From: Anaerolineales bacterium
GTDB lineage: Bacteria > Chloroflexota > Anaerolineae > Anaerolineales > E44-bin32
Length of the DNA: 64,000 nucleotides
Assembly: GCA_035693825.1 (NCBI GenBank)
Contig: DASSGB010000232.1
Coordinates: 4,199 to 68,198 of the forward strand
Direction of reading: 5' to 3'
This document shows, in pieces, positions 2-51,736 of the stretch (its first letter is position 1; each line of letters begins with the position of its first letter). The notes below the pieces were generated by a model. The model was not told the origin of the DNA. It saw nothing but the letters and a program-made list of their open reading frames with translations, and made no database searches. The position numbers and the translations under genes are program-made.

Positions 2-1435
2 CTGGCCCTTGCCTCCGGCGCCACGAGCGTGACCGCCATCTACGACGAGCCTCTCATCTTCGAGGCGCTCTCAGGTCCCTTCCTGGGTTTCACTCGGAGT
101 CTTGCAGTCGATCCCCGTGTGCAATGGATTGCCGGCCCGCAGCGGTCCGGCCTGGCTCGCCTGAGCGATGACTTCGACTTGATCGTCATCAGTCTCAGCG
201 ATCCCTACCGCCCGATCCGCTCCGGTGCTTTCAGCTTGAATGAGGAATATGGATTGACCCTGCAGGCGCTGACCGAGGCTCTCCAGCACCTGAAGCCGGA
301 CGGCCTGCTCGTCCTGACGCGCTGGCTCGGGACGCCCCCCAGCGATGAAACCCGCGCCTGGGCCACCCTGGTGGCGGCGATGTCAACGCCTGGTGCGGAA
401 GGCCCTGAAGACCGGATGCTGGCCTATCGGTCGATGCGCACCGCGACTCTGATCGCGAGTCCCCGTTCCTTCTCCCCGGCGGAGCTGGCCACGGTGCGCA
501 GCTTGCTCGAGGCCAGCGGCTACGATCCCATCTACCTTCCGGACCTGCGTCCGGAGGAGCTCAATCGACACAATCAGCTCCCCGAGGATGTCTACCACAC
601 GCTCTTCACCGGCTGGATGCTCGATCCCGAGACGACCCTCTCCCGCGCCGAAATGGATGTGCGCCCGACGAGCGACGACCGCCCCTTCTACTTTCAGTTC
701 TTCCGCTGGCGGCAGACGCCGGAGGTCCTGGCGCAGCTGGGGATGACGTGGCAACCATTTGGAGGAAGCGGGTTTCTTGTTCTCCTCCTCTTACTGGGAG
801 TTGTCCTGATCCTGGCCTTAGGGCTCGTGCTATTGACCGCGCGCCTCGCGCCTCGAGGCGGGACCTCACGGCCGAGCCCCGGTCGTTCGATGCTGTACTT
901 CGCCGCCGTCGGGCTGGGCTTCCTTGTGATCGAGGTAACGCTGATCCAGCAGCTCGTTCTGCTCCTGGATCGCCCGGGCCTATCTCTGGTGACGGTCTTG
1001 GGCGTCCTGCTTCTATCGTCGGGACTGGGGAGTCTGATCTCCCACCGCGTTCGACTCGTCCGGCTCCTGCCTTCGTTGGCGTTGTACGCCGCCATCCTGA
1101 CATGGGCCATTCCATGGCTCAGCCCAAGCGCTCTTGGCTGGCCCCTGCCGGCCAGGGTCGCCTTGTGCGCAGCCGTGCTTTTCCCACTGGGCGTCGGAAT
1201 GGGAATCCCCTTCGCCGGCGGACTCCGTCTGCTGGAGCGGATCGGCCCGCCCCTCGTACCCTGGGCGTGGACTGCCAACGGCGCGGCCTCCGGCGTGGCC
1301 GGCCCGGTGGCCGCGTTGCTCGTGCTCAGTGCCGGATTCAAGACGACCCTGGTCGTTGGAGCCGCGATGTATCTGATCGCGTGGCTGGTAGCGCCGCGCC
1401 ATCGAGATGCGGGCTACCAGTCTTCGGGAATGTAA
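2..1435 (+). CDS. Spermidine-synthase-like (SpeE-fold) domain fused to a C-terminal polytopic membrane domain; 5' partial
   Basis: The frame is open from the window edge, and the first listed codon (29) is a GTG inside an open frame. The N-terminal part resembles the SpeE/methyltransferase core (DLIVISLSDPY..., GLLVLTRW). The C-terminal 230 aa contain about 6 hydrophobic helices. Confidence 0.6.
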   Translation: MALASGATSVTAIYDEPLIFEALSGPFLGFTRSLAVDPRVQWIAGPQRSGLARLSDDFDLIVISLSDPYRPIRSGAFSLNEEYGLTLQALTEALQHLKPDGLLVLTRWLGTPPSDETRAWATLVAAMSTPGAEGPEDRMLAYRSMRTATLIASPRSFSPAELATVRSLLEASGYDPIYLPDLRPEELNRHNQLPEDVYHTLFTGWMLDPETTLSRAEMDVRPTSDDRPFYFQFFRWRQTPEVLAQLGMTWQPFGGSGFLVLLLLLGVVLILALGLVLLTARLAPRGGTSRPSPGRSMLYFAAVGLGFLVIEVTLIQQLVLLLDRPGLSLVTVLGVLLLSSGLGSLISHRVRLVRLLPSLALYAAILTWAIPWLSPSALGWPLPARVALCAAVLFPLGVGMGIPFAGGLRLLERIGPPLVPWAWTANGAASGVAGPVAALLVLSAGFKTTLVVGAAMYLIAWLVAPRHRDAGYQSSGM

Positions 1436-10600: not shown

Positions 10601-11003
10601 CTCGAAACGGAGCCCGCTGCTCGAACACCGCTGCCCGCGCCGGCCAGGTCCGGTAATCCCGGATGTTCAAGGGTTGGCCGGTTTCGGCCACGGTGCCTGC
10701 CGCTCCCTCGCCGAAGTTGAGCACGGTGCCCACGGCGGAGACCGGCGTGCCCAGGCTGACCACGCAGCGCACCTGGCGGGTCTCGGGCACCACCAGGTAC
10801 ATCCCGCCTCCCTCGCCCTGAATCAGATCTACGGCGTTGCGGACGATCGATTGGAAAAGCGACTCGAGGTCCGGCTGGAGAACGGCTTCTTCGGTGACGC
10901 GGCGCACGGCCTCCAAGGCCTCCGGGCGGGCGCCCGGAGATGGCGCGCCCCCTTCGGGGCGGCCGCGCTTGCGCCGGCTTCCATCGAGTCGGGCCGGGGT
11001 CAT
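7671..11003 (-). CDS. Cytoplasmic sensor histidine kinase with about five GAF domains
   Basis: Five repeated GAF-like blocks, then HisKA (FVADVSHELRTPLTNI) and HATPase_c (GGAIRI...DTGLGIP...GTGLGLAI). No TM segments. No adjacent response regulator. Confidence 0.9.
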   Translation of the reverse strand: MTPARLDGSRRKRGRPEGGAPSPGARPEALEAVRRVTEEAVLQPDLESLFQSIVRNAVDLIQGEGGGMYLVVPETRQVRCVVSLGTPVSAVGTVLNFGEGAAGTVAETGQPLNIRDYRTWPARAAVFEQRAPFRAVISAPMVWQGRVTGILHVLRFRSESAFNDADLRLLTVFANQAAVVLENARLLEAAERRFRQLSLLHGITRAGMALTELQPLVQEMADRMASLIEADACYLTLWDEGHRTVLPAAAFGTFRDTYPAMGPEPGEQTLTESVLKVGHPLAIDDVSATPYVSQSLSQRFLVRSALGLPLVVGETRVGAALLTFERPHAFTPEEINLCEQAAGQVALAIARVRALEAERRRTAELEGIRRASLRLTSSLELRPVLESVLEEALKLARAKDAHIFMYDGEKLAFGAAYWDGEFHPAPFSEPRPHGLTYSVARTGQRIIVADASTDPMFQDSPWSGTILGIPILAAGRVRGVMTMAFGRPTDLDQDELRALELLADQTAIALENARLFETIDTERRRLRLLFDITRELSASVDLTEILERAVRLTTANLDAEWGTAYLLDSQSGRLRLTATAGDLGMDVDSLDRILGMRTGRGLEGWVVAHRQSALVREVLQDERWLHLRALNHGPGSAITAPILTGQEILGVMTVLRSEVFQQEHLLLLEAVGWQVGLALANARRYQEVTRRLAERAALQNVAQTVNRRLEMEALLDEVVRQVSDVLGYPVVEIFLIEDDVLVLRAAKDTMAIGEKRVPIKRGVIGRAVRTNRPAYVPDVRQDPDYVVGVPTTVAEIAVPLYKEDLVVGVLNVETPERGRLTEEDLHLLTLLADQVSVALENAALYDRLRRNMAELEQTVSDRTAELAKALEQAREADRLKTQFVADVSHELRTPLTNIRLYLELVDRGRPEKFANYMETLNRETERLVSLIEDLLAVSRLDAGTAVPQPEPIDLNRLALGLVEDRRRLMHQKSLSLSYEPMAGLPVVMADERMLAQVLANLMTNAMNYTPPGGAIRISTDVAQDADGSWVRLSVADTGLGIPDDEKPNLFSRFFRGSASRLMNTSGTGLGLAICREILDRHGGRITFTSRTGEGTTFTIWLKTTEATPSA

Positions 11004-17390: not shown

Positions 17391-17515
17391 TACCGTGGCC
17401 ACGGCGCGGTGTCTCGCCTTCTGACTCGGAAGGGCGACTTGTCCTGCAGCGACGCATGGCATAGAGTCAGTCGCGCTCGGCACAACGGTCTGCGTCCCTC
17501 CGCGGAGGCCCTTTC

Positions 17516-18634
17516 ATGATCCCCGATCTCAATCCCAGCCCGCGCCTTCTTCTCGGGCCGGGCCCCAGCATGCTTCACCCGCGCGTTCTGCGAGCCATGG
17601 CCACACCTCTGGTGGGGCACCTCGATCCGGATTTCATCAAGATCCTGACCGACATCCGCAACATGTTGAGGCGCGTTTTCCAGACGGAGAACGAGTTGAC
17701 CCTGGCCGTTTCGGGCACAGGCACGTCGGCCATGGAGGCCGCTCTGGGAAACCTCATCGAACCCGGCGACGTGATGTTGGCCTGCGTCCACGGCTACTTC
17801 GGCGATCGCTTGGCCGAGATCGGCCGACGTTACGGAGCCCAAGTCGAGCGCCTCGAGAGTCCCTGGGGCCATTTCACCGATCCGGCGGCCATCGAGGCCT
17901 CCCTTCGTCAGCACCGGGCCAGAATCGTCACGCTGGTCCACGCCGAGACCTCCACCGGCGTCCTCCAGCCCGACATTCGCGCCATCGCCGAAGCCTGTCA
18001 TCGCCACGAGGCCTTGCTCGTGCTTGACTGCGTGACCTCCCTGGGAGGCATAGCGGTCGAAGTCGACGATTGGGGGGTGGATGTGGCTTACGGCGCCTCT
18101 CAGAAATCGCTATCCGCGCCGCCGGGACTGGCCCCGATCACCGTCGGGCCGCGGGCGCGCGAAGCCATCGCCCGGCGCAAATCACCCGTGCCGGTGTTCT
18201 ACTTCGACCTTGAATTGCTCAATCGCTACTGGGGCGAGACGCCTGTCTACCATCACACCGCGCCCATCAGCACGGCGTATGCGCTGCGCGAGGCTCTGCG
18301 CCTGGCGTTGGAGGAGCAGCTCGACAAGCGCTATCTCCGCCACCGGCACAACGCCCAGCGCCTGTGGCGAGGGCTCGAGGAGATGGATCTCGAACTGCTC
18401 GTGCCCGAGCCGCATCGTCTCACGACTCTCACCACCCCCCGACTGCCGGCCTCGTGGGACGACGGCGGCCTGCGCCGAAAGCTTCTGGAAGTTTACGGGA
18501 TCGAAATCGCCGGGGGTTTTGGCCCGCTTGCGGGAAAGGTGTGGCGAATCGGACTGATGGGCCACTCGAGCCGCCCGGAGAACGTGCTTACGTTCCTGGG
18601 TGCGCTGCGCGAGTTGACCGACGGGAGGTCCTGA
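17516..18634 (+). CDS. Class-V aminotransferase (alanine-glyoxylate / serine-pyruvate type)
   Basis: Family-like over its whole length: LLLGPGPS..., HAETSTGV, ...ASQKSL (PLP-Lys region). GGAGG SD. Confidence 0.9.
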   Translation: MIPDLNPSPRLLLGPGPSMLHPRVLRAMATPLVGHLDPDFIKILTDIRNMLRRVFQTENELTLAVSGTGTSAMEAALGNLIEPGDVMLACVHGYFGDRLAEIGRRYGAQVERLESPWGHFTDPAAIEASLRQHRARIVTLVHAETSTGVLQPDIRAIAEACHRHEALLVLDCVTSLGGIAVEVDDWGVDVAYGASQKSLSAPPGLAPITVGPRAREAIARRKSPVPVFYFDLELLNRYWGETPVYHHTAPISTAYALREALRLALEEQLDKRYLRHRHNAQRLWRGLEEMDLELLVPEPHRLTTLTTPRLPASWDDGGLRRKLLEVYGIEIAGGFGPLAGKVWRIGLMGHSSRPENVLTFLGALRELTDGRS

Positions 18635-35498: not shown

Positions 35499-36033
35499 GA
35501 AACCGATCCTCCGCCAGCGCGCCCGCAAGGTGCGCTCGGTGGGCCCCAGCCTGCATCGGTTGGTCGAGGACATGATCGACACGATGCGCGCCGCGCCCGG
35601 CGTGGGCCTGGCCGCGCCCCAGGTGGGCGTCGCCCAGCGGGTGATCGTGGTCGAGTTCGCCGAAACCAAGGACGACGACGGCGTCGAGCCCAAGCTCTAC
35701 GTGGTCGTCAATCCGGAGATCGTGCGCCACTCGGCCGACACAGTTGTCGGAACGGAAGGCTGCCTGTCCATCCCCGGCTTCCTGGGCGACGTCGAGCGAT
35801 ACCAATCGGTGACGGTGCGCGGCCTGGATCGGCGCGGCCGTCCGCTTCGTCTCAAGACCAACGACTGGCTGGCGCGTATCTTCCAGCACGAGATCGACCA
35901 CCTGGACGGCGTCCTGTACATCGACCGCGCCAGCCGCGTGTGGAAGGCAGAGCCCGAAGAGGCGGCGGCCGTTCAGGTCGGCGCCCCCCACCCGGCAACG
36001 GAGAACACGGAGAACAAGGAGGCAGGCGAATGA
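35470..36033 (+). CDS. def: Peptide deformylase
   Basis: GVGLAAPQ, EGCLSIPG and HEIDHLDG motifs. The start overlaps the upstream gene by 29 nt. Confidence 0.95.
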   Translation: MASLPILTAEKPILRQRARKVRSVGPSLHRLVEDMIDTMRAAPGVGLAAPQVGVAQRVIVVEFAETKDDDGVEPKLYVVVNPEIVRHSADTVVGTEGCLSIPGFLGDVERYQSVTVRGLDRRGRPLRLKTNDWLARIFQHEIDHLDGVLYIDRASRVWKAEPEEAAAVQVGAPHPATENTENKEAGE

Positions 36034-36401
36034 AGCTTCTGTTGCGTTGGCTGATCACTGCGCTCGCCCTGGGCGCGGCGGTGTTGCTCGTCCCAGGCAT
36101 TCGCGTCGAAAGCGACCGCGCCTGGTTGACGGTGGCGGCCATGGCCATCATCCTGGGCCTGGTGAACGCCTTTGTCCGTCCCCTGCTCAAGCTGCTCTCT
36201 TGTCCATTGATCCTGGTGACCATGGGCCTGTTCCTTTTGGTGGTCAACGCCTTCACATTGTGGCTGGCCTCGGCCATCGCTGCGGCCATCGGGGTGCCGT
36301 TCTTCGTCGACGGTTTCTGGCCGGCGTTCGTGGGCGGCCTGGTCATCAGCGTGGTGTCTTTCCTGCTGTCCATGTTCCTGATCGACGACCGCGAGCGATA
36401 A
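36030..36401 (+). CDS. DUF360 / phage-holin-family-IV-like 4-TM membrane protein
   Basis: MKLLLRWLITALALGAAVLLVPGI... followed by 4 TM helices. ATGA overlap with the def stop. Confidence 0.75.
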   Translation: MKLLLRWLITALALGAAVLLVPGIRVESDRAWLTVAAMAIILGLVNAFVRPLLKLLSCPLILVTMGLFLLVVNAFTLWLASAIAAAIGVPFFVDGFWPAFVGGLVISVVSFLLSMFLIDDRER

Positions 36402-40920: not shown

Positions 40921-43008
40921 TCACGCCTCGCTGGACAGCGGCAGGCTGAAGGAGAAGGTCGAGCCCTTCCCCGGATCACTCTCGACCCAAATCCGTCCCC
41001 CATGGGCCTCAACGGCCAGGCGGCAGAAGGCCAGGCCCAGGCCGAGGCCTTTGGCGTTGCCTTCCTGATTGGCCCGGGCAAACTTCTCGAAGATGTTCTT
41101 CTGCTCGCTGGCCGGAATCCCCGGCCCGTTGTCGGTGACGCTCACCACGAGGTCGCCGGCCCGGGCGTGGGCCGCCACGCCGATCTGCCCGCCGCTGCGC
41201 GTGTACTTGATGGCGTTTTCCAGCAGGTTGATCAGCACCCGCCGGATCATGTCGACGTCCATCTCGACCGCCGGCAGCTCGGCTTTGCCCAGCCCGAACT
41301 GCAGCAGGTGGCCCCTGGCCTCCGCCACGGGATGGACTTCCTCGACCGCCTCGGCGATGAGGCCGCTGATGGCGGCCGGCGTCTTGTGCAGAACCGCCTG
41401 CCCCGATTCCAGCTGACCCAGATCGAGCAGCGACTCGACCAGCCGCGACAGCCGCCGGCTGGAGCGCAGGGCGATGGACAGGATCGACTGCATGGCCTCA
41501 TCGTCCTGCGGCAGCGTTGCCTGGAGCATCTCCAGGCTCGAGATGATGTTGCCCAGCGGCGAACGCAAATCGTGGAAGATCATCGAGGTCAGATCCAGCC
41601 GCAGCTCGTCCAGCGCCAGCCGCTCGGAGATGTCGCGCAGAATCCACTGCAGCGTACCCTGCGGCCCGATGTCGATCCGCTTGACGTGAATCTCGATCGG
41701 CAGCTGCCGCCCGTCGCGGTGCATCGCTCGTCCGGTGTAATCGTCGGTTTCGCCCTCCTGCAGGCTGCCGAGCTCCGGGGGGTGTTGGTCGGGATCCGGT
41801 TGGTGCAGCTTCAACACCGATTCACCGACCAGGTCATCATGCGAGGTGCCCAGGAACTCCTGGGCCCTCCGATTGGCATCACTGACCTTTCCCTGCAGGT
41901 CGGTGATGAGAATCGGGTCGATGCTGTCTTCGAACAGGCTGGCGTAACGCTGCCGCGCCGCCTGGGTTTCGGCGAACATCTGGGAGTTGGTCACGGCGGC
42001 CGCGGCTTGATCGGCGAAGGCCGCCACCAGCTCGGCCTGCGTCGCCCCGTAGGTGCCGACCCGGCGGCTGTCGACGTTGAGCACGCCCACGGCCCGATCG
42101 CGCACGATCAACGGCGCGCCGATCCAGCCGCGGATCAGGGCCGACTCGGGCACTTCGTCCGAGCGCACCCAGCCGCGCTCTTCCTGCACGTTGCCGATGA
42201 CCAGCGTTTGGCGCGTGGTCAGCACGCGGCCGGTCAGCATATCGGGGTTCACCGGCAAGGTCAGGCCGATGATGGCCCGGTTGTTGGCGAAGCCGCGCGC
42301 CGCCACCAGGCGCAGGACGTCCCCATCGCGCAGCAGAATGCTGGCGCTGTCGAAGTCCACCACGCGTTCGAGCTGCTCCAGGACCGTGGGAAAGACCAAG
42401 GCCGGGTCGAGGGTTGAGCTGATCGATCGGGCGACTTCCTGGAGCGTCGAGGCAAACTTGCGCCGCTCTTGCTCGGCGCTGAACAGCCGGGCATTCTCGA
42501 CGGCGATGCCGGCCTGGTCGGCGATGGCGCTCAGCAGCTCCAGGTCGTCTTCATTGAAGTGGCCCGCCTCGGGATGGACGAGCGTCAATACGCCCACGAC
42601 GCGGGTGCGGGTCATCAACGGGACGGAGATGACCGAACGCGACTCGCCCTCCGCTTCGTGCTCGGGTCGCCGCAGCCAGCGCGGATCGTCGGCCGTTCGC
42701 CGCACCAGGGCCGGCTCGCGGTGCTCGACCACCCAGCCCGCCAGGCCGCGCTCGAAGGTGTCGGTCAGCTGCTCGGCGGTGTGGTCGTGGACTTTGCCTT
42801 CGTAGGCCAGCGCGCCCTCGAGCACTTCGCCCTGGTTGTTGAGCACCAGAATGCTGCCGCTCGGAGCCCCGACGGTTTCCAGGGTCAGTTGAAGAATGTG
42901 CTGAAGCAGTTGGCGGAGATCGAGTTGCGCCGCAAGCTCGCGGCCGATGCGATACAGCAGCTCGAGCGAGGAACGCGTTCGTTCACGGGCCGGCCCGTGG
43001 GCGGTCAC
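40921..43008 (-). CDS. Cytoplasmic GAF-GAF-PAS sensor histidine kinase
   Basis: Two or three GAF blocks, PAS (IDPILITDLQGKVSDAN), HisKA (FHDLRSPLGNI) and HATPase_c (DNGPGIP...GLGLGLAF). No response regulator is adjacent. Confidence 0.9.
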   Translation of the reverse strand: MTAHGPARERTRSSLELLYRIGRELAAQLDLRQLLQHILQLTLETVGAPSGSILVLNNQGEVLEGALAYEGKVHDHTAEQLTDTFERGLAGWVVEHREPALVRRTADDPRWLRRPEHEAEGESRSVISVPLMTRTRVVGVLTLVHPEAGHFNEDDLELLSAIADQAGIAVENARLFSAEQERRKFASTLQEVARSISSTLDPALVFPTVLEQLERVVDFDSASILLRDGDVLRLVAARGFANNRAIIGLTLPVNPDMLTGRVLTTRQTLVIGNVQEERGWVRSDEVPESALIRGWIGAPLIVRDRAVGVLNVDSRRVGTYGATQAELVAAFADQAAAAVTNSQMFAETQAARQRYASLFEDSIDPILITDLQGKVSDANRRAQEFLGTSHDDLVGESVLKLHQPDPDQHPPELGSLQEGETDDYTGRAMHRDGRQLPIEIHVKRIDIGPQGTLQWILRDISERLALDELRLDLTSMIFHDLRSPLGNIISSLEMLQATLPQDDEAMQSILSIALRSSRRLSRLVESLLDLGQLESGQAVLHKTPAAISGLIAEAVEEVHPVAEARGHLLQFGLGKAELPAVEMDVDMIRRVLINLLENAIKYTRSGGQIGVAAHARAGDLVVSVTDNGPGIPASEQKNIFEKFARANQEGNAKGLGLGLAFCRLAVEAHGGRIWVESDPGKGSTFSFSLPLSSEA

Positions 43009-44165
43009 AGCAGATCCTTCAATCCGGTGCCGGTGTTGAACAGGATGACACGCTCATCGGGCTTGATCCAACCGCGGCGTGCCAGGCTGGCGGCGCCGGC
43101 GACCGTGGCCGCGCCTTCGAGACAGGCGAGCACGCCTTCCGTTCGCGCCAGCAGCTCTCGCGCCTGGCGCATCTCGCTTTCGCTGACCGTCACTCCGGTT
43201 CCCTTCGTGCTCCGTACCACATCCAGAATCAGCCGGTCGGCCAGCGGCTTGGGCACGCGCAATCCGGCGGCTCCGGTCTGCGCCCCCTCCCAGCGCTCGG
43301 CACGCTCCTCGCCGCGCTCGAGGGCGCGCACGATCGGGGCGCAGCCCTCCGGCTGCACCGCCACCATGCGCGGTCGCTTGGGCCCGATCCAGCCGAGTGC
43401 TTCCAACTCGTCGAAGGCTTTGACCATGCCCACCAGGCCCGTCCCGCCCCCGGTCGGATACAGGATGACGTCCGGCAATTCCTCGCGGAACGCCTCCACC
43501 AGCTCGAATCCCATGGTCTTCTTGCCTTCCACGCGTCCCACCTCTCGAAAGGTCGAGAGATCAAGCCAGCCGTTGGCTTTGCCGGCGGCGACGGCCTCGC
43601 GGCCCGCGACATCGATCAGACCGTCCACAGGATGCACCCGCGCCCCGGCCGCTTCGATCTCGCGGCGAATGCGCGCCGGGGCATCCGCCGGCATGAAGAT
43701 CTCGGCCTGCGCGCCGGCGCGGGCGGCATACGCCGCAAGCGCCGCCCCGGCGTTTCCCGCCGTCGGCAGTACGAAGTGATCCGCCCCGTGCTCCAGCGCT
43801 CTCGCCACCGCCACGGCCAGGCCGCGGGCCTTGAACGTTCCGGTCGGATTGACGCCTTCATCCTTGACCCACACCGCCGTCAGCCCGAGGCGCCGCGCCA
43901 TTTCCCGCACGGGCAGGAGCGGCGTGTCGCCCTCACCCAGACTTAGAGTCCGGCCGATCGACGGGGAAGCCGGCAGCAGCTCCGACCAGCGCCAGATTCC
44001 TGAAGGGCGGCCTGCCACCTCTTCCGGTGTCAGCCGCCCCTGCAGCACCTCAAGATCATAGCGGGCGAGCAGCGCCGAGTCACACTCCGGACAGATGGCC
44101 GAAAGCCGGTCGGCGTCATACCAGGCACGGCATCCGGAACATTCCAGGCCGCGCAGCGCACCCAT
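43005..44165 (-). CDS. thrC: Threonine synthase (with an N-terminal Cys4 zinc ribbon)
   Basis: PLP-Lys motif NPTGTFKARG and N-terminal C..C...C..C. The ATG at 44165 sits 9 nt downstream of a TGCTATACT box. Confidence 0.85.
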   Translation of the reverse strand: MGALRGLECSGCRAWYDADRLSAICPECDSALLARYDLEVLQGRLTPEEVAGRPSGIWRWSELLPASPSIGRTLSLGEGDTPLLPVREMARRLGLTAVWVKDEGVNPTGTFKARGLAVAVARALEHGADHFVLPTAGNAGAALAAYAARAGAQAEIFMPADAPARIRREIEAAGARVHPVDGLIDVAGREAVAAGKANGWLDLSTFREVGRVEGKKTMGFELVEAFREELPDVILYPTGGGTGLVGMVKAFDELEALGWIGPKRPRMVAVQPEGCAPIVRALERGEERAERWEGAQTGAAGLRVPKPLADRLILDVVRSTKGTGVTVSESEMRQARELLARTEGVLACLEGAATVAGAASLARRGWIKPDERVILFNTGTGLKDLL

Positions 44166-44174
44166 GTTGTGACG

Positions 44175-44183
44175 AGTATAGCA
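44175..44183 (-). promoter_or_regulatory. Extended -10 (TGCTATACT) 9 nt upstream of the thrC ATG
   Basis: The minus strand reads GCATGCTATACTCGTCACAAC-ATG. Confidence 0.5.
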
Positions 44184-44332
44184 TGCGCCCCTGTCTTGCC
44201 GATGCGACATAAGCAGGCTGCCGTATTCAAGACTCTGGATTCGGCCCCCCTCCGGCTGCGGCTCAGCCTATCGGCCTCGCCTCGCCTGCGGGGGGAATGG
44301 TTTCGGACATGGACGGGAGATTCCTCGATCGC

Positions 44333-44375
44333 CAATAGCCAACGGCAGACGGCGGACGGCTGACGGCCGACGGCC
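44333..44375. repeat. Heptamer array (NGACGGC x5-6)
   Basis: CAACGGC AGACGGC GGACGGC TGACGGC CGACGGC. It abuts the stop codon at 44378-44380 of the minus-strand gene. Confidence 0.9.
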
Positions 44376-44377
44376 TT

Positions 44378-46072
44378 TTACGATTTCCCCCGCCGGCCCT
44401 TTTCCTCGTGAATGAACAGCCATCCGGCGATCTCGCCCACGTCGAACGAATCGCCGGCGGTCCAGGAAAGTTCTTCGGGATAGGCTCGATCCTGACGAGA
44501 GCTCGTGTCGCCTGCGGCCTTCTGCCGCACATGCTCGCGCAGGTCCCGCAGCCGGGCCGACCAGCGCGCGGCGTTGGCGGGCGTCAAATCCACCCAGCCG
44601 TGCTCGGCATCCGCCGACTTGATCGTCGGGCCCCGCAAGAGGCGCCGGCCATCCGCCATCAGAATGGGAATCCCGATGGAGAGAATCCGCTGGCGCAGGG
44701 CTGCGTCGTCCGAGATGAGTTTCTCCATGGCGCGCGCCAGATCCTCCGGAGAACGCTTCACGGCCGCCTCGAGGGTCCCGCACGTCTGTCGCAGCAGGTC
44801 CGCCTCAAAGAGCAGCTTCGACAGGCGCGGCGGGCCCAGGATCTCGAAGGCCACCGAGTCGACGCCGTGCTCCTGCTCGAGCTGGCGCAGGCGGTTGAGC
44901 GCCGCCTGACGAAGGAAACCCGCCCGGTAGGATGGGCCCAGGACCGACCCGTCGAGCGCCGCCACGATATCGTGTCCGGTGTTGCCGCCCTGAATCTCGT
45001 GCACGACATTGGCTGCGATCTCCTCCGGCGTCACGAATTCCATCTGCCCCAGGGTGGTGATGGCGCGGAACTCCCCCGCCGCGAACACGCCGTTCTCGCC
45101 CGTGTCGATGTAGACCGACTCCAGTGGCTTGCCGGTCGAGCGGCCGAAGGCGCCCTCCGGAGCCAGGGCCTCCTCCGCGTCCACACGCACCGCCTCGGCG
45201 GGAAGACAGTCAAACAGCTCGATCTCCCTCCCGCCGCGCCGGATCGGCCCGTAGCCGATCTCCTTCCAGGCGATGACCGCCGTCGGCTTGATCTCTTTGA
45301 CGATCTGAGGGCCTCCCGGTGTGCGCGCGATCAAGAACGTCAACAGCGTCTGCGCGCCCGCCACGGCCGACTTCGAGAGCAGCACGCGCGAGGGTCTCTC
45401 CTCGCCGTGGGTGTAAGGAATGTTGAAGCCCATGCCGCCCGTGCCGCTCGTGCCGACTTTGATATAGGCCTTCGTGTCGGCGCGCAGCATCGCCTCATAC
45501 AGAATCTGCATGTGCCGAACGAGCTGCGGGATATACAACGCCGTGAGCAGACGCTCGACTTCTTCCGGCCAGTCGGTGGTGGCGCCCTGGGCGATGCGAT
45601 CCTGGAGGCGGCGCGCCGTCTGGAACACGTTTTGATACGCGACCGCCGTGGCGGTGTTCACGCAATCCACGATGATCTCCGCCGGGTGGCCGTCCAATCC
45701 ACGGGCGGTGCCCACGATCAACTGATAGAGCATCGACGATTCGAGGATCGACTCGTCGATCTCGTTCAGGATGTCGGCCACCAGCTGCCGCCGCCGGTGC
45801 GTGTCGGCCAGGACCGCCGTGCGCGGATGGACTCCGGCAGGCCCATCCTGCCACTCGGCGCGCAACAACAGATCGCCCCAGGCCGGCACCAATACCGTCG
45901 AGGACTCGGGGAACTCGCGACGCAGGCCGGCCACCCCGGCCTCGGCCTCACTCTGCCGAAGCGAGGCGACCACCAGCCGCGCCGGACGATGCGCCAGCAG
46001 CTCGCGGCACACGGCCGTCCCCACCAGGCCGTAGCCGCCGAGGACGAGCGCATTCCTGTTCTCAATATCCAC
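44378..46072 (-). CDS. Large NAD(P)-binding Rossmann-fold protein, uncharacterised (saccharopine-dehydrogenase-like N-terminus)
   Basis: The GTG at 46072 has a GGAGG SD. The N-terminus ALVLGGYGLVGTAVCREL is a dinucleotide-binding motif. The remaining 500 aa or so have no motif I recognise. Confidence 0.55.
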   Translation of the reverse strand: MDIENRNALVLGGYGLVGTAVCRELLAHRPARLVVASLRQSEAEAGVAGLRREFPESSTVLVPAWGDLLLRAEWQDGPAGVHPRTAVLADTHRRRQLVADILNEIDESILESSMLYQLIVGTARGLDGHPAEIIVDCVNTATAVAYQNVFQTARRLQDRIAQGATTDWPEEVERLLTALYIPQLVRHMQILYEAMLRADTKAYIKVGTSGTGGMGFNIPYTHGEERPSRVLLSKSAVAGAQTLLTFLIARTPGGPQIVKEIKPTAVIAWKEIGYGPIRRGGREIELFDCLPAEAVRVDAEEALAPEGAFGRSTGKPLESVYIDTGENGVFAAGEFRAITTLGQMEFVTPEEIAANVVHEIQGGNTGHDIVAALDGSVLGPSYRAGFLRQAALNRLRQLEQEHGVDSVAFEILGPPRLSKLLFEADLLRQTCGTLEAAVKRSPEDLARAMEKLISDDAALRQRILSIGIPILMADGRRLLRGPTIKSADAEHGWVDLTPANAARWSARLRDLREHVRQKAAGDTSSRQDRAYPEELSWTAGDSFDVGEIAGWLFIHEEKGRRGKS

Positions 46073-46207
46073 GTGGAAGACCTCCGTGCGGGACGGTCGA
46101 AAGGGAGGGGGACTTCCCGCGAGCGGCCCGCAGGCCGCCCGCATCAGCCTATTCTACAACCGGGGAAGGAGGAAGCGCCGTTCGGCAGGTGCCTGGGCAG
46201 GCAACCT

Positions 46208-46579
46208 TCATTCGACGTAGATCTCGACTCGCTGGCCCTCTTCTTCGTCGACGACGTCCATGACTTTCCCGCTCATGCCCTGCCGCAGCGCGTTGGCCAG
46301 TTCGCCCAGTTCGATGCCCTCGACATCGGGAATGAAGCGCGCTCCGACTTTCAGCCCGACGTTGACCAGCCGCATCGGAATGGTCACATTGACCGAAGGC
46401 TTGCCGCTGTGGACATCGGTCACCCGCACCCGCAGCCACCGCGACTCGAGATCGCCCGCCGCCTGCCGTCGCCGCTCGCCCCGCGCCAGTGCCGCGAGCA
46501 GCCGGGCCGCCTCCTCGGGAGTGATCTTCTTTTCCTCGACCATCTTGAGGATCTTGAGCCGCTCTTCGGAAGTCGTCAT
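46208..46579 (-). CDS. Small protein with an N-terminal SHOCT-like helix motif
   Basis: SEERLKILKMVEEKKITPEEAARLLAAL followed by a beta-rich domain of about 80 aa. Confidence 0.7.
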   Translation of the reverse strand: MTTSEERLKILKMVEEKKITPEEAARLLAALARGERRRQAAGDLESRWLRVRVTDVHSGKPSVNVTIPMRLVNVGLKVGARFIPDVEGIELGELANALRQGMSGKVMDVVDEEEGQRVEIYVE

Positions 46580-46595
46580 GTCCGTCTCCGCTAGA

Positions 46596-47567
46596 TCACC
46601 TGGCTGTCGGCTCGACCGCGGACCTTAGGCCCAGGGTCAGAGCCATCCACTTCAAGCTTCGACCCGGCTGAAATCCGTGGGCCCGGAGGCTTGATTCATC
46701 CGCTGCATGATCGACCTCCAGCCGCATCGTGCCGCGCCCCGGAGAGGCGTGCAGCGCCCGGTCGAGCAGGGCAGCCTCGGCCCTGCCTCTGGCCAGCGGA
46801 TCGAGCACCATCAGCCAATGCACTCCAGGGGCTTCGTAACCGGGAAAGGCCGAGAGGCTGGCCATGAGGGGGCCCTCCTCCGGCCAGACCCAATGTCTTG
46901 CCCACACGCCGTCCAGGACTCCGGCCGAGTCCAGCGGCCGCGGCCACAACAACCCTTCGGGATGAAGTCGGCGCACGAGGGCCAGGTGCTCGAGAGAATC
47001 GGCCGACCGCCGTGCACGCGCCGGTTCCTGCGCCGTTTCCGCCGGCGGCGACCAGCCCGCGATTCGATTCCAGGTCGTTCGATGGGAGACGACGCGGAAG
47101 CCCAACCGCGCATACAGCTCCTGGGCGCCGGCCTCCGAGGCATCCACCTGGAGGAAGACCTCATGCGCGCCACGTCGCCGGGCCTCGTCCAGGCAGGCTC
47201 GCACCAGCGACGAGCCGATGCCCCGGCGCCTCCAGGTGGGCTCGACCGCCACGTTGATCAACACCCACCGCCGGGGCGCCTCGTCGACGCGCATCAGGCT
47301 GGCGTTGCCCACGATGCGGCCTTCTTCCAGCCAGACATACCCCTGAGGAAAAGCCGCGGGGGGCAGGAACCATCGGCCGATGGCCCAGCCCAGCCGGCCC
47401 CAGCGACCGAAGGAGCGCATGGCCTGCACCATGCGCTTGCCCTCAGGGTCGAGGCGTTCCGCGAAGGCCGCCTCGATCACGGACCCCAGGCCGCCCAGAT
47501 CGCGGCGGGGGTCGATGGCCCGCATTCCCCTCGCCGGCGCCGCGCTCGAAATAGCGGCTGCCGTCAC
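46596..47567 (-). CDS. Tandem-domain GNAT N-acetyltransferase
   Basis: The first half has a GNAT core (RRRGIGSSLVRACLDEARRRGAHEVFLQV). The second half is GNAT-like. Overlaps the upstream gene by 4 nt. Confidence 0.8.
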   Translation of the reverse strand: MTAAAISSAAPARGMRAIDPRRDLGGLGSVIEAAFAERLDPEGKRMVQAMRSFGRWGRLGWAIGRWFLPPAAFPQGYVWLEEGRIVGNASLMRVDEAPRRWVLINVAVEPTWRRRGIGSSLVRACLDEARRRGAHEVFLQVDASEAGAQELYARLGFRVVSHRTTWNRIAGWSPPAETAQEPARARRSADSLEHLALVRRLHPEGLLWPRPLDSAGVLDGVWARHWVWPEEGPLMASLSAFPGYEAPGVHWLMVLDPLARGRAEAALLDRALHASPGRGTMRLEVDHAADESSLRAHGFQPGRSLKWMALTLGLRSAVEPTAR

Positions 47568-48613
47568 GCGCCCGGCTCCAGTGCCCGCAACAACGATTCG
47601 GCCTGCTCCACGCTGATCTTCCCGTCCTCCAGCATCCGCAGGATCGCCAGCCGCTCGTCGTCCGTCGGCTCCGCGCCCACGGTTTCTTCTTCGGCGGTCT
47701 CGGGCGATCCCTGGCGGGCGCGCCGCAGCGCCCTCGAAATGGCGCGATGGACTTTCTGCCGGAGATCCTGAGCCTCGAGCCCGTAGGCGCTGAGGTCCAT
47801 GCCCTCCAGGCCGGCCTCGACATCGGCCAGGGTTGCTTCCACCTGAGAGCTGATCTCCTCCGCCAGGCCGGCGGTAAACTCTGTGCCGCCGTGCGTTACC
47901 AGGACGTCGCCTCCGGCGGATATCTCCACCGTTGCCTCACCGCCACCCAATGTCACCGTCGACTCGCCCGCCGAACGCTCACCCATCATGCGCAGGTCGC
48001 CCTGCGCCCTGCCGGTGACTCTGGCCGAGGCGGAGGTGAGGAAGCGGCACACCACGTCCCCCTCGGCGCGAACCGATGAGCTGCTGCCGGCAGGCGGCAG
48101 CCACTCCAGCATCGCATCTCCACGCGCATGCACCTGAAGACCGCCCTCCAGGTGGATGGCTCGCAGGTCTCCTGCGACTTGGTCGATATGGACGGGCCCG
48201 GTGACCTGCTCCATCCGGGCGCTTCCGTCCACGATCGCGACTCGCAGACCGGATACAAGCCTCCGAACCGCCAGGTCGCCCGACACGTGCTCGACGTGCG
48301 TGGCTCCGACGTGACGCAAGCTGAGATCACCGGCGATGTCGCCCAGCCGGAGCTCGCCCGCCAGGTCGGCCAGCCGCGCGTCCCCCGACACGCGCTCCAC
48401 CTCGAGCGTGCTGTCCTCAGGCAGGAACAGGAGACATCCGGATCGGCAGGTCACCTCAACGCCATTGCCGCGCGCCTGCACCAGCAATCCGCCGCGGCTG
48501 CCTGCCTGGGCTTCCAGGCGCGTCCCCGGCCGGCCGCTGACCCGAAGGTCGCCGTCGATCGAGGTGATATGCACCCGCGGGTGCGGGCCGACTTCCTGAC
48601 GGACGCTCTCCAT
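47564..48613 (-). CDS. DUF4097-like repeat (putative beta-helix) protein with a C-terminal SHOCT-like motif
   Basis: Many repeated SGD(L/A)xx strands. The C-terminus is DDERLAILRMLEDGKISVEQAESLLRAL. Confidence 0.7.
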   Translation of the reverse strand: MESVRQEVGPHPRVHITSIDGDLRVSGRPGTRLEAQAGSRGGLLVQARGNGVEVTCRSGCLLFLPEDSTLEVERVSGDARLADLAGELRLGDIAGDLSLRHVGATHVEHVSGDLAVRRLVSGLRVAIVDGSARMEQVTGPVHIDQVAGDLRAIHLEGGLQVHARGDAMLEWLPPAGSSSSVRAEGDVVCRFLTSASARVTGRAQGDLRMMGERSAGESTVTLGGGEATVEISAGGDVLVTHGGTEFTAGLAEEISSQVEATLADVEAGLEGMDLSAYGLEAQDLRQKVHRAISRALRRARQGSPETAEEETVGAEPTDDERLAILRMLEDGKISVEQAESLLRALEPGA

Positions 48614-48636
48614 ACCGATCGCCTCCGCTTCGCTGT

Positions 48637-49020
48637 CTACTCTGCTTCCAGCAGACGCATCGCCTCGTCCGAAGTAATACGGCCGCCGGCCAGGTCGTCC
48701 AGGACGCGCTGCCGCTCGTCCTCCGACCTCGACGAGGATTCTTCACCCACAGGGAATCCCATCTGGCGCACGACGTCGACCAGGCGCGAACGCAGCGTCG
48801 GATAGGACAGCCCCATTTCGCGCTCCATCCGGTTCAACTTCCCCTCGCACCGCAGGAACGTTTCCACGAACGTCAGTTGATCGGAAGTCAGTCGACCCAG
48901 GCGGCCGACCTCAAACTGGCCGTCCACGGTCGTGTCGCAACTGCGGCAGTGAAGCCTCGTCACCGCGAGCCGTTCGCCACAAACTGGACATAATGTGAGC
49001 AGAGGGTTCATTCGGACCAC
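48637..49020 (-). CDS. DUF2089 family protein (zinc ribbon plus HTH) with a C-terminal SHOCT-like motif
   Basis: CPVCGERL...CRSCDT zinc ribbon, then LTFVETFLRCEGKLNRMEREMGLSYPTLRSRL, then a C-terminal ERQRVLDDLAGGRITSDEAMRLLEA. The start is the GTG at 49020 or the ATG at 49011. Confidence 0.8.
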   Translation of the reverse strand: MVRMNPLLTLCPVCGERLAVTRLHCRSCDTTVDGQFEVGRLGRLTSDQLTFVETFLRCEGKLNRMEREMGLSYPTLRSRLVDVVRQMGFPVGEESSSRSEDERQRVLDDLAGGRITSDEAMRLLEAE

Positions 49021-49075
49021 GCCTCGGAACCGAGGTTACGATATTCCTCGTTTGGTTTTCATGTTATCCGCGCGA

Positions 49076-49103
49076 ATTGTAATGGGCCTTTAAGAAAAGT
49101 CAA
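49076..49103 (-). promoter_or_regulatory. Sigma70-type promoter (TTGACT-16-TACAAT) for the DUF2089 operon
   Basis: The minus strand reads CTTGTTGACTTTTCTTAAAGGCCCATTACAAT, in the most AT-rich stretch of the window. Confidence 0.55.
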
Positions 49104-49191
49104 CAAGGGATGAAGAACTTTGAGGGGCGGCCCAAGGCGTCCATGCATCGGCCGCAGGCGAATCATGGCCGCATCGTCGGTCGGGGTCCTC

Positions 49192-49200
49192 TGCTAGAAT
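49192..49200 (+). promoter_or_regulatory. Extended -10 (TGCTAGAAT) for the aminotransferase gene
   Basis: CTCTGCTAGAAT lies 27 nt upstream of the ATG at 49228, with a GAGGGAAG SD in between. Confidence 0.5.
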
Positions 49201-49227
49201 GCCCCTGTCCACTCGCCGAGGGAAGCC

Positions 49228-50292
49228 ATGGCGCACCTTTTCGTGCCGGGGCCGACCGATGTCGCCCCCGAGATTCTGGCAGCGCAGACCCACCCCATGA
49301 TCGGGCATCGCAGCCAGGCATGTTCGGATCTGATGGCCCGCATCCAACCTCGCCTTCAGCAGGTACTCCAAACCCGCCAGCGCGTGTACATCACCGCCTC
49401 CTCGGGGAGTGGACTCCAGGAAGCGGCCGTTCGCAACACGGTCGCGCGGCGCGTGCTGGTGTGCGTTGGCGGCGCTTTCGGCGAACGCTGGTATGACATC
49501 GCGCGCGCCAACGGCCTTGCCGCCGACCGCCTCGACGCGGCCTGGGGCGAGCCGCATCGGCCGGATCAGGTGGCCGAGGCCGTGGCGCGCGGCTACGACG
49601 CGGTGGCCATCGTCCACAACGAGACGTCCACCGGGATCGAAAACCCGGTGGCCGATATCGCCCGAGCCGTGCGCGCCGCGGCGCCCGAAGCGCTGCTGCT
49701 CGTCGACGCCGTGTCCTCTGCCGGCGGAGTCGACCTTCGGCCCGACGAGTGGGGGCTGGATGTTGTTCTCACCTCCTCGCAGAAGTGCTTCGCGCTGCCG
49801 CCGGGGTTGGCCTTCGCCGCCGTCAGCGATCGCGCCCTCGAGCGCGCGGCCACGATCGCCCACCGAGGCTGGTATTTCGATTTCCTGCTGCTGGAGAAGT
49901 ACCTCCAACAGCACAACACGCCGGCCACGCCGGCCATTTCCCTTCTGTACGCCCTCGACGCGCAACTCGATCGAATCCTGGCCGAGGGTCTCGAGGCCCG
50001 ATTCGCACGCCACAGCCGCATGGCGCAAATAGCCCAGGGTTGGGCCGAGGATCGTTTGTCGGTCTTCCCCCGCGCCGGGTTTCGCTCGAAGACGGTCACC
50101 ACCATATCCAACACGCGCGCCATCGATATCGTCGCCCTTTCGGCCCACCTGTCCCGCGCGGGCATGGCCATCGCCAACGGCTACGGACCGCTCAAAGGAA
50201 AGACGTTCCGCATCGGACACATGGGCGAAATTACCCCGGACGACGTCGCCTCTCTCCTGGCGCAGATCGATGGTTTCCTCGGTCAGTCCTGA
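49228..50292 (+). CDS. Class-V aminotransferase (second paralog)
   Basis: Contains LFVPGPTDV..., HNETSTGI and ...SSQKCF (PLP-Lys region). Confidence 0.9.
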   Translation: MAHLFVPGPTDVAPEILAAQTHPMIGHRSQACSDLMARIQPRLQQVLQTRQRVYITASSGSGLQEAAVRNTVARRVLVCVGGAFGERWYDIARANGLAADRLDAAWGEPHRPDQVAEAVARGYDAVAIVHNETSTGIENPVADIARAVRAAAPEALLLVDAVSSAGGVDLRPDEWGLDVVLTSSQKCFALPPGLAFAAVSDRALERAATIAHRGWYFDFLLLEKYLQQHNTPATPAISLLYALDAQLDRILAEGLEARFARHSRMAQIAQGWAEDRLSVFPRAGFRSKTVTTISNTRAIDIVALSAHLSRAGMAIANGYGPLKGKTFRIGHMGEITPDDVASLLAQIDGFLGQS

Positions 50293-51736
50293 CCCACCGG
50301 CCCCGCAGCGGCCGAGCGGGCGACTCCTCGCGGGGCTGTTCCTGGTGGCTGCGCTTCCCCGCCTGGCGCTGGCCCTGGTGTACCTGAACCTCCCCATCGG
50401 CCTGGACGACATGTTCCAGTACGACATGCTCGGCCGCTCGCTTGCCTCCGGAAACGGCTACCGCTGGTACACCCGCGCCGACGTGGCGGCCCTGCGACCG
50501 TATCTCGACAAGTGGTATGCCATCGATCTTCCGACAGAAGCCGTTCCCGCCGACGGGTATCTCACCACGTTTCGTGCTCCCGGGTACCCGCTTTTCCTCG
50601 CCGGGATCTACTCGTTGGTGGGCATGACACAGCGGTTGGCCGCGGTCCGTCTGATTCAAGTCGGCCTCGGAGCGATGCTTGCGCCCCTGACGGCTCTGCT
50701 GACCGCCCGGCTCTTGCCCTCCCCGCGAGCGCCCTGGATATCCGGAACCGTCGTTGCGCTGTACCCGATCCTGTGGATGTATCCCCTCGGCCTCGGCTCC
50801 GAGAATCTGTTCATGCCCCTGGTCATTCTTTCGGGGCTGGCTCTCCTGCGCGCGGCGCGGTCTGCTGGCGACGCCCCGGCGGCGGTGGCGGGCGTGACGA
50901 TGGGACTGGCCACCCTGACCCGCGGCGCGTTCGTGCTCACGTGGCCTCTGGCCCTGGTGTGGCTCGCCCGGCGCGCCGGCGCGCGCCGCGCCCTGTTGAC
51001 GGCGATCGCTGCCGCGGCCATCGTGGCGCCGTGGGCCATCCGCAACAGCCGCGTGTTGGGCCGGCCGGCTTTTGTCGAAACCACGTTGGGCTACAACCTG
51101 TTCATCGGCTACCACCCCGAAGGCGACGGCGGCTTCGTGACGCGCATCGCGCTCATGCCCGTCCACATGCTCGACGACGGCGAACGCGACCGATGGACGA
51201 TGGAGCGCGCGCTGGGCTTCATTCGCAGCGACCCCACGCGGGCGGGTCTTCTCACACTGCGGCGATTGGCGTATTTCTGGGGCTGGGAGACGCGCGAGCT
51301 GGCGTACTTCTACAGCAACAACACCTTCGGTCCATTGCCGTCAGGCGTGCTCCTGGCGGCAATGCTTGTCTTGGTCGGACCGTGGATGGCCGTCGCCCTG
51401 TCCGCGCCGCTGGGCTTCGCCGTTGCTCCCGGCTCCGGGGGCCGCTGGTTCAGCCTGGCCTTTCTGATCGGGGGCATGTTGCCGTACATACCCGTCCTGG
51501 CCGAGCCGAGATTCCACTTGCCCGTACTTCCGTGGCTGTCGGCCTACGCGGCCTACGCGTGGCTCGAGCGCCGCCGCTGGTTGCAGCCATCGCCGCCGGC
51601 CCGCCTGGCCATCCTGGCCGCGGTTCTGGTGATCATCCTTCTCGTCTTGCTGTGGAGCTGGGACGCCCTGCGTCTCCTGCCTCGCTGGCAGGCCGTGTTC
51701 TCGCCCGGCGGCCACCGCCTGTATCTTGCCTATTGA
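50270..51736 (+). CDS. GT39/ArnT-like polyprenyl-phosphate-dependent glycosyltransferase
   Basis: About 12 TM helices. The first loop DDMFQYDMLGRSL (DD/DE motif) is typical of PMT_2/ArnT-like enzymes. Confidence 0.75.
   Translation: MVSSVSPDPPAPQRPSGRLLAGLFLVAALPRLALALVYLNLPIGLDDMFQYDMLGRSLASGNGYRWYTRADVAALRPYLDKWYAIDLPTEAVPADGYLTTFRAPGYPLFLAGIYSLVGMTQRLAAVRLIQVGLGAMLAPLTALLTARLLPSPRAPWISGTVVALYPILWMYPLGLGSENLFMPLVILSGLALLRAARSAGDAPAAVAGVTMGLATLTRGAFVLTWPLALVWLARRAGARRALLTAIAAAAIVAPWAIRNSRVLGRPAFVETTLGYNLFIGYHPEGDGGFVTRIALMPVHMLDDGERDRWTMERALGFIRSDPTRAGLLTLRRLAYFWGWETRELAYFYSNNTFGPLPSGVLLAAMLVLVGPWMAVALSAPLGFAVAPGSGGRWFSLAFLIGGMLPYIPVLAEPRFHLPVLPWLSAYAAYAWLERRRWLQPSPPARLAILAAVLVIILLVLLWSWDALRLLPRWQAVFSPGGHRLYLAY

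Follow-up and report, generated by a model that had tools for sequence, protein, structure and literature searches.

Of the bacterial envelope-stress modules, those built around the Toastrack and SHOCT-like domains come closest to the locus described here. Ravi et al. 2024 (PMC11237479) defined Toastrack by unifying DUF4097, DUF2154 and DUF2807, split DUF2089 into a zinc ribbon, a helix-turn-helix (HTH) and a SHOCT-like domain, and defined the last of these. Their study, which is computational only, presents a four-gene sigma/anti-sigma/Toastrack/DUF2089 context, tabulates the pairing of DUF2089 genes with following genes for SHOCT-like partners, and proposes Lia-like signaling from the membrane to transcription with SHOCT-like as a membrane anchor. 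Toastrack domains are usually fused to transmembrane (TM) anchors, which SHOCT-like replaces in YvlB-type proteins (PMC11237479). Among the experimentally studied members, two-hybrid assays link the SHOCT-like- and Toastrack-containing YvlB of B. subtilis to PspA, LiaH and Yvl proteins as interaction partners (PMC9239133), while LiaX of E. faecalis modulates LiaFSR and binds daptomycin and LL-37 (PMC6936494, PMC12791056). In the respective loci, liaXYZ and yvlABCD, as well as in lmo2484-87, the Toastrack gene is accompanied by genes for a PspC protein and a holin-like PF04020 protein, and all three loci are responsive to membrane-active peptides (PMC6936494, PMC12791056). Here we analyze a four-gene operon in a 64,000-nt stretch of an Anaerolineales bacterium (GCA_035693825.1, contig DASSGB010000232.1, positions 4,199 to 68,198), hereinafter the window, which almost certainly belongs to this DUF2089/Toastrack/SHOCT-like module and represents a Chloroflexota-specific architecture that is undescribed so far, with a soluble Toastrack protein bearing a C-terminal SHOCT-like domain, a pair of soluble and 2-TM paralogs combining SHOCT-like with an uncatalogued domain X, and optional tandem GNAT, major facilitator superfamily (MFS) and PF04020 genes.

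DUF2089, Toastrack and SHOCT-like are all widespread, with no mechanism demonstrated for any of the three, and their best-studied relatives, LiaX and YvlB, bear on daptomycin and antimicrobial-peptide resistance. A sequence-only reading of the window had called these families functionally uncharacterized, which overlooks both the published association (PMC11237479) and the experiments on YvlB and LiaX.

The operon and the domains of its products

The operon (46208–49103, minus strand, in window numbering) comprises four co-oriented, tightly packed open reading frames (ORFs) at 48637–49020, 47564–48613, 46596–47567 and 46208–46579, with gaps of 23 nt after gene 1 and 16 nt after gene 3, genes 2 and 3 overlapping by 4 nt (GTGA). 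Checked against the ORF list and the letters themselves, the layout is as the sequence-only reading gave it. That reading had further proposed that three of the four products share a motif of about 27 residues and that none carries a secretion signal or TM segment, and on both points it was right. The motif corresponds to the curated Pfam family SHOCT-like_DUF2089-C (PF22746), which scores above or at its gathering threshold (27) in all three proteins and is kept in orthologs across about 60 loci; it is thus a recognized homologous domain rather than a chance resemblance. As for membrane segments, none of the four products has a TM-like window, the maximum Kyte-Doolittle 19-residue means being 0.7–1.1.

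The product of the first gene shows, in order, matches to Zn_ribbon_DUF2089 (PF22747; 3e-14), DUF2089-HTH (PF09862; 1.2e-18) and PF22746 (3.1e-6; 27.0 bits, equal to the cutoff), corresponding to a Cys4 zinc ribbon with a visible CPVC...CRSC motif, an HTH and, at the C-terminus, a SHOCT-like bihelix (48643–48720). It is a regulator of the DUF2089 family, as had been read from the zinc ribbon and HTH. While its mechanical ORF begins at a GTG at 49020 (127 aa), the gene on a near-identical contig, L001, was called at 124 aa, and the true start is therefore likely the ATG at 49011, giving a 124-aa protein encoded at 48637–49011. Pfam finds no recognizable ligand-binding domain in this protein, and a PDB sequence search with it returned nothing meaningful.

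The second gene (47564–48613) codes for a 349-aa protein with PF22746 at residues 319–348 (9.4e-10, 38.2 bits; encoded at 47570–47659). By sequence, the remainder falls just short of the Toastrack/DUF4097 family PF13349 (21.9 bits against a cutoff of 22.9, over residues 68–153 only), and PDB searches with the protein or with a 36-sequence Toastrack profile gave nothing meaningful; many of its orthologs have a precomputed PF13349 match. The structure is clearer: the AlphaFold2 model (mean predicted local distance difference test score, pLDDT, 87.5) displays a right-handed β-helix over residues 1–241 (encoded at 47891–48613; pLDDT >93), followed by a low-confidence helical linker and the C-terminal SHOCT-like bihelix. 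Foldseek retrieves from the PDB 4QRK (E 4e-7, probability 1.0) as the top match, followed by 4YGU (1.5e-4), 3PET (3.6e-4), 3LYC and 4OPW (1e-2), with low TM-scores of 0.19–0.44, as expected for β-helices differing in length. Of these, 4QRK and 4OPW are “putative adhesin” structures on which Toastrack was defined (Ravi et al. 2024, PMC11237479). The protein is hence a Toastrack protein by fold; the DUF4097-like assignment of the sequence-only reading stands, while its estimate of about 15 strands gives way to 11 xG[DE][LAVI] rungs and 27 strands. Its rejection of the “adhesin” label is upheld too; an intracellular location of Toastrack is also what Ravi et al. 2024 (PMC11237479) argue for, independently of it.

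The last gene (46208–46579) codes for the small protein, of 123 aa, in which PF22746 occupies residues 5–35 (4.9e-11, 42.2 bits; encoded at 46475–46567), at the N-terminal position proposed for it, with no other Pfam family detected. The C-terminal 79 residues (aa 45–123, encoded at 46211–46447) constitute domain X, predicted to adopt a β-β-α-α-β-β arrangement, for which neither Pfam nor NCBIfam has a matching model. An AlphaFold2 model of the small protein (pLDDT 72.9) retrieved nothing at E < 0.1 in a Foldseek search of the PDB. Homologs of the small protein number 835, almost without exception 123 aa long (62–93% identity among the top 120), and a search with X alone yields 699 clusters at 50% identity, with X always C-terminal. 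Apart from the copies in the operon, the window has no SHOCT-like, X or Toastrack gene.

The third gene (46596–47567) codes for a 323-aa GNAT acetyltransferase (PF00583, 3.9e-23) with the tandem organization seen in the earlier reading: an N-terminal domain (aa 74–165, encoded at 47073–47348) with an intact acetyl-CoA motif, RRRGIG, at residues 112–117, and a degenerate C-terminal domain (approximately aa 178–323, encoded at 46599–47036) in which ARGRAE replaces this motif. The homology of the two halves is borne out by an hhalign comparison within a 25-sequence alignment of the family (probability 95.4%, E 2e-8). The best PDB sequence match is RimI (5ISV, 6.8e-9), and at the domain level the enzyme also resembles aminoglycoside and streptothricin acetyltransferases. 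With its GTG start overlapping the stop codon of the Toastrack gene, and thus translationally coupled to it, such an enzyme could favor reading the locus as a plain repressor-controlled detoxification or resistance operon, in which DUF2089 would be a ligand- or stress-responsive repressor, the GNAT (or an MFS pump) the purpose, and the Toastrack and small proteins passengers. The lack of a recognizable ligand-binding domain in DUF2089 speaks against this alternative, and the gene neighborhoods considered next bear on it directly.

An almost invariant core with swappable accessories

At the protein level, the window is 100% identical to the metagenome-assembled genome of an uncultured Anaerolineales organism. 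Taking one genome per species, we found at least 499 relatives, of which the best 80 loci were retained; all are labeled as Chloroflexota or its classes, except for one labeled Methanosarcinales. Neighborhoods were counted in the 59 species-level loci with at least 5.5 kb upstream by searching stop-to-stop ORFs with the proteins of the window and three proteins from relatives; the small protein served as the search query, and its presence in these loci is by construction. Toastrack is present in 59/59 and DUF2089 in 58/59. A further paralog of about 200–240 aa with TM helices occurs in 49 of the 59, GNAT in 37, a 4-TM PF04020 protein (YvlD/LiaZ-like) in 27, MFS transporters in 22 and a second soluble small paralog in seven. 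The commonest gene order is DUF2089>Toastrack>GNAT>TM paralog>small>PF04020. The 2-TM paralog consists of one or two SHOCT-like units and a pair of TM helices, in which GGWWW(L/I) is conserved, and its C-terminus matches the X domain of the small protein (e.g., L003:5066–5794, L021:7452–7976 and L037:7229–7852). Thus, the core genes travel together: DUF2089, Toastrack and the small SHOCT-like + X protein form an almost invariant core, with GNAT, MFS and PF04020 as swappable accessories. This joint conservation, like the recovery of the shared motif by profile searches, removes a ground on which the sequence-only reading could have failed.

The sequence-only reading had cast the acetyltransferase as a core output or modifier of the module, which its presence in only 37/59 relatives contradicts; the GNAT is better regarded as an effector of particular lineages than as part of the switch. 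The same pattern weakens the detoxification alternative. The MFS pumps in 22/59 relatives would suit it, but the supposed passengers, Toastrack in all 59 loci and the small protein (by construction), are the invariant elements, while the supposed purpose, GNAT or MFS, varies from locus to locus, and the equivalent pairs of Bacillota described below dispense with an enzyme altogether. We consider it an improbable account of the locus.

Two distant loci retain the core with the TM paralog: L084 has the order DUF2089>Toastrack>TM paralog>small, and L086 has the same core together with GNAT and a 940-aa protein. The latter (L086:8238–11060, on a 3.68-Mb contig) lies between the GNAT and the TM paralog and matches no significant Pfam family. 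The second soluble SHOCT-like + X paralog is found in L032, L039, L041, L064, L069, L073 and L082, positioned directly upstream of Toastrack in L039 and in the gap between DUF2089 and Toastrack in the other six, so that these operons encode four or five SHOCT-like proteins. The locus labeled as a Methanosarcinales archaeon metagenome-assembled genome (L071, JAIWHF010000009.1) has a complete Chloroflexota-type operon with synteny identical to that of L074 and L076, and looks like a mis-binned contig rather than an archaeal occurrence.

Against this background, the operon in the window is a reduced, all-soluble derivative of the Chloroflexota architecture, since it is without the TM paralog, MFS and PF04020 genes that are usual in its relatives. 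The all-soluble character noted in the sequence-only reading accordingly holds for the window and fails as a general trait, most relatives including a 2-TM paralog, MFS or PF04020 protein. Both the TM paralog and MFS are missing in 4/59 loci, two of which have the exact four-gene order of the window while two keep PF04020. A PF04020 homolog does exist in the window at 35940–36401 (plus strand), about 10 kb off the operon and beside a peptide deformylase-like ORF; in the 27/59 relatives with a PF04020 gene it is the last gene of the operon.

Operon synteny is stable across Anaerolineae, with housekeeping-type neighbors, and this bears on another possible reading of its small, tightly packed genes, namely a toxin–antitoxin or anti-phage module in which the GNAT would be the toxin and either the small or the HTH protein the antitoxin. 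Pairs of a GNAT toxin and a small DNA-binding antitoxin are indeed established. However, the present GNAT is a 323-aa tandem enzyme absent from 22/59 relatives, PADLOC has no match for any of the operon's proteins, and the synteny is that of stable vertical inheritance rather than of a mobile or variable island, rendering this reading scarcely credible.

Beyond Chloroflexota, full-length DUF2089 genes of cultured bacteria were found by tblastn against plasmids, and the next gene was inspected. In Paraclostridium bifermentans, DUF2089 is followed by a 132-aa SHOCT-like + X protein (BLASTP against the small protein of the window, E 3e-13, spanning X), and in Niallia taxi by one of 129 aa (E 8e-11; hhalign against the family, probability 96.8%). 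These Bacillota homologs of the small protein were reached only via the neighbors of DUF2089 genes, tblastn with the small protein against plasmids giving no match at E ≤ 0.01. They constitute two-gene DUF2089 → SHOCT-like + X pairs with no enzyme. In Legionella adelaidensis, the gene after DUF2089 codes for a Yip1-type 5-TM body that bears a weak SHOCT-like segment, and in Embleya (Actinomycetota) for a 192-aa PF22746 protein, otherwise unassigned, which is followed by an ABC-2 permease. The uncatalogued X domain accompanies DUF2089 in at least two phyla.

Two further observations concern these plasmid-borne contexts. The third gene in the Bacillota loci (L088:4792–5079; L087:4749–5030) codes for a protein of about 94 aa resembling a stand-alone X without SHOCT-like, a likeness that for the Paraclostridium copy has an hhalign probability of 91% over 29 columns and for the Niallia copy was judged by eye only. 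Separately, a short DUF2089 form, with the HTH and C-terminal bihelix but no zinc ribbon, is encoded on plasmids of Lactococcus (L090), Priestia (L091), Lactiplantibacillus (L094) and Enterococcus (L095), where its gene overlaps the start of a gene for a protein of about 95 aa with 2–3 TM helices, indicating translational coupling. Two of these four loci (L091 and L094) adjoin aureocin A53/enterocin L50-type leaderless bacteriocin genes, which suggests that this DUF2089 subfamily is tied to bacteriocin immunity or regulation.

Downstream of the operon in the window lies a 588-aa ORF (44378–46144, minus strand; called as 564 aa on L001) with a weak Rossmann-like N-terminus and a precomputed match to PF27054, “Beta_methylindole_red_C”. 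In close relatives this gene is syntenic with a class-V aminotransferase (in the window at 49228–50292, plus strand), a PALP enzyme (43005–44210, minus strand) and a large GAF-repeat protein. Considered as a fifth operon member, it was rejected as part of the core, its synteny being confined to close relatives and its strand reversed in L003; it is probably outside the operon. Elsewhere, the window has a second class-V aminotransferase paralog at 17465–18631 (plus strand; E 7e-50 against the copy at 49228–50292) and two large multi-GAF proteins, at 40924–43053 and 7674–11003 (both minus strand), both related to the GAF protein that relatives maintain in synteny with the operon.

The SHOCT-like domain, candidate operators and a proposed mode of regulation

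The distribution of the SHOCT-like domain in the operons was charted with a hidden Markov model (HMM) iterated from its three copies in the window and run on ORF pieces of the related loci (about 60 species). It is positive for 88/89 small, 70/76 Toastrack, 68/71 DUF2089 and 45/63 TM-paralog pieces, and for none of 51 GNAT, 39 MFS and 36 PF04020 ORFs. Aligned by class, the copies differ between the regulator and its partners at the two residues following an invariant “IL”: those of DUF2089 are acidic–acidic (D62/E32, then D61/E21), whereas those of the partners are basic–Met, with K87/R6 and M91 in the small protein, R54/K34 and M94 in Toastrack, and K39 and M56 in the TM paralog. The domain is confined to DUF2089, Toastrack, the small protein and the 2-TM paralog, shows this charge signature and recurs across phyla on different bodies, which indirectly supports a role of the SHOCT-like unit in connecting the regulator with its partners.

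What kind of link this might be is where our reading departs from that of Ravi et al. 2024 (PMC11237479), in which an amphipathic SHOCT-like domain puts each protein independently on the inner leaflet and contacts form via the β-sheets of Toastrack, with no pairing. Beyond being the published prediction for these very domains, membrane anchoring accords with the wealth of membrane proteins in the operons of relatives (2-TM paralog, MFS and PF04020) and with the usual fusion of Toastrack to TM segments, for which SHOCT-like stands in within YvlB-type proteins. Yet the SHOCT-like segments are neutral to acidic, with net charges of −1 to −3.7 that are unfavorable for anionic lipid, and have no aromatic or bulky hydrophobic face; the domain persists in a paralog with two TM helices of its own and also occurs in a transcription factor, which has to get to DNA; and the acidic-versus-basic class signature would have no obvious reason. 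We regard anchoring as the unlikely answer here, if one with real standing. Pairing between SHOCT-like domains is favored because nothing else is shared by the otherwise unrelated bodies of the partners in four phyla, because the domain is retained on an already membrane-embedded protein, and because it is acidic overall with a charge signature separating regulator from partners.

The operon is preceded by a sigma-70-type promoter, TTGACT-16 nt-TACAAT (49076–49103, minus strand), with 92 nt separating it from the ATG at 49011. The promoter scan found this single promoter-like site in 45000–50500 (0.4 expected), which is the one proposed from the letters alone. The closest relatives retain a −35 region of the form TTGACTTT(T)CTT and a −10 of TAnnAT, and TTGACN-15..18-TANN[AC]T is present in 34/65 related upstream regions.

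Upstream of the DUF2089 genes of relatives we found, by seeded expectation maximization, an AT-rich palindrome of the approximate form TCAATAATATTGA, counting as sites those scoring at least 10 with its position weight matrix (PWM) within 450 nt upstream. At least one site is present in 43/62 related loci, in one to three copies flanking the core promoter, and the sites abut the −35 hexamer and/or sit just downstream of the −10 hexamer, a layout typical of autoregulatory operators. The carriers span L013–L083, examples being L058 (at −102/−97) and L059 (at −174/−122). There are 53 sites in 28 kb upstream as against eight in 874 kb elsewhere, a 204-fold enrichment, and 0.5±0.8 in shuffled upstream regions, the matrix having been trained on the upstream regions it scored, with shuffles and the rest of each locus as controls. 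Most of the “elsewhere” hits of a first pass fell in the same intergenic region, further upstream. In AT-rich Bacillota or Legionella loci, the PWM does not single out DUF2089 upstream regions. Since this operon-specific palindrome flanks the core promoter in two-thirds of relatives, DUF2089 probably autoregulates its operon, a dimer of it binding near its own promoter.

A different palindrome had been proposed as the DUF2089 operator in the window, namely the 6+6 repeat CCTCGG-TT-CCGAGG in the leader (CCTCGGTTCCGAGG, 49022–49035, minus strand), with a GAGG ribosome-binding site within its right arm. Although it exists, it is kept only in L001, which is of the same species as the window, and the leader hairpin is not unusually stable (minimum free energy −17.4 kcal/mol, z = −1.39, not significant). 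On these grounds, an operator role was rejected as improbable. Rfam has no matching family in 44000–50500.

Drawing these strands together, we read the locus as a Chloroflexota form of a module that has been predicted to work like Lia or Psp, relaying a signal from near the membrane to transcription. Our preferred model, held tentatively and just short of what we would call probable, is that of a membrane-stress-linked, autoregulated operon in which DUF2089 is controlled via heterotypic SHOCT-like contacts. The acidic C-terminal SHOCT-like domain of DUF2089 would pair with the more basic bihelices of its partners, i.e., the Toastrack scaffold, the soluble X protein and, in most relatives, the 2-TM-anchored X paralog, and this pairing would set the activity of the regulator. 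An Id protein titrates a bHLH factor, and an anti-sigma factor holds its sigma; the partners might similarly titrate or tether DUF2089. Perturbation of the membrane or envelope, sensed by the membrane-anchored or Toastrack partners, could then shift the equilibrium and thereby change the expression of the operon, with effectors differing by lineage: the tandem GNAT in the window and MFS pumps or PF04020 elsewhere. As a membrane-anchored partner is absent from its operon, in the window the signal would have to enter via the Toastrack or X proteins, or via a partner encoded elsewhere in the genome. Taken by itself, control through SHOCT–SHOCT pairing is possible but doubtful.

Several points weigh against this model. 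The autoregulation and membrane sensing are extrapolated from relatives, and the extrapolation is weakest for the window itself, because its operon encodes none of the membrane components and the AT-rich operator is missing too: its promoter region reaches a PWM score of no more than 2.5, where 10 is the threshold, and its high-GC closest relatives are also without the palindrome. The training of the matrix on its own targets counts on the same side. In lactic acid bacteria, the short, ribbon-less forms of DUF2089 are coupled to small TM proteins that have no SHOCT-like domain, and the shared domain is thus not universal to DUF2089 partnerships. From the literature, the one published test of a classical SHOCT domain found no self-oligomerization (Eberhardt et al. 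2013, PMC3581485), the authors of the SHOCT-like family favor membrane anchoring over pairing (PMC11237479), and LiaX is reportedly exposed on the cell surface and released, in conflict with a purely cytoplasmic role of SHOCT-like + Toastrack proteins.

A bolder generalization of the pairing model, one we consider rather unlikely, is that SHOCT-like represents a heterotypic pairing code, acidic on DUF2089 and basic on the X, 2-TM X, Toastrack and Yip1-type partners. A regulator would then be titrated or membrane-tethered by proteins copying its own dimerization module, and X would be the sensing or effector end of a widespread unrecognized signaling scheme. Either way, this operon family is a compact and well-conserved setting in which to test the role of SHOCT-like, in pairing versus membrane anchoring: it has a regulator and two to three partners sharing only this domain, a natural pair of soluble and membrane-anchored paralogs, a mutable class-specific charge signature and, in relatives, a candidate operator.

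Comparison with known systems

The advance over the 2024 comparative-genomics description (PMC11237479) is incremental, with no new category of system. The operon shares with the DUF2089 contexts of that study the architecture of the regulator, PF22746, the SHOCT-like + X partner and the association with Toastrack. It differs from them in being without a sigma/anti-sigma pair and LiaI-LiaF-TM, PspC or B-box partners, in its soluble Toastrack protein with a C-terminal SHOCT-like domain and no N-terminal TM anchor, and in its additions, which are the tandem GNAT in the window and the 2-TM SHOCT-like + X paralog, MFS pumps and PF04020 in relatives.

The yvlABCD, liaXYZ and lmo2484-2487 operons, which are linked to the cell-membrane stress response, likewise encode a SHOCT-like + Toastrack protein without signal peptide or TM segment (YvlB/LiaX), and the PF04020 4-TM protein (YvlD/LiaZ) that adjoins it there does so in the relatives of the window as well. 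In contrast, SHOCT-like is N-terminal in YvlB and LiaX and C-terminal in the Toastrack protein of the window; those operons are regulated by LiaFSR or sigma-W rather than by an operon-encoded DUF2089 protein; and the operon in the window is without the PF04020 gene of yvlABCD and liaXYZ and has no PspC gene either. More broadly, no match to the Psp/Lia components PspA/LiaH, PspC or LiaI-LiaF-TM was found among the four products or the flanking genes, and the common ground with these systems is confined to Toastrack and SHOCT-like, plus PF04020 in relatives. The resemblance to the Id/bHLH and anti-sigma/sigma pairs is an analogy in the proposed logic only, with no relationship in sequence or fold. 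Finally, like the classical SHOCT domain (PMC3581485), the SHOCT-like domain is a short, bihelical and mostly terminal module found on many unrelated bodies; as PF22746, it nevertheless constitutes a separate family, which in these operons is common to co-operonic proteins and displays a class-specific charge pattern.

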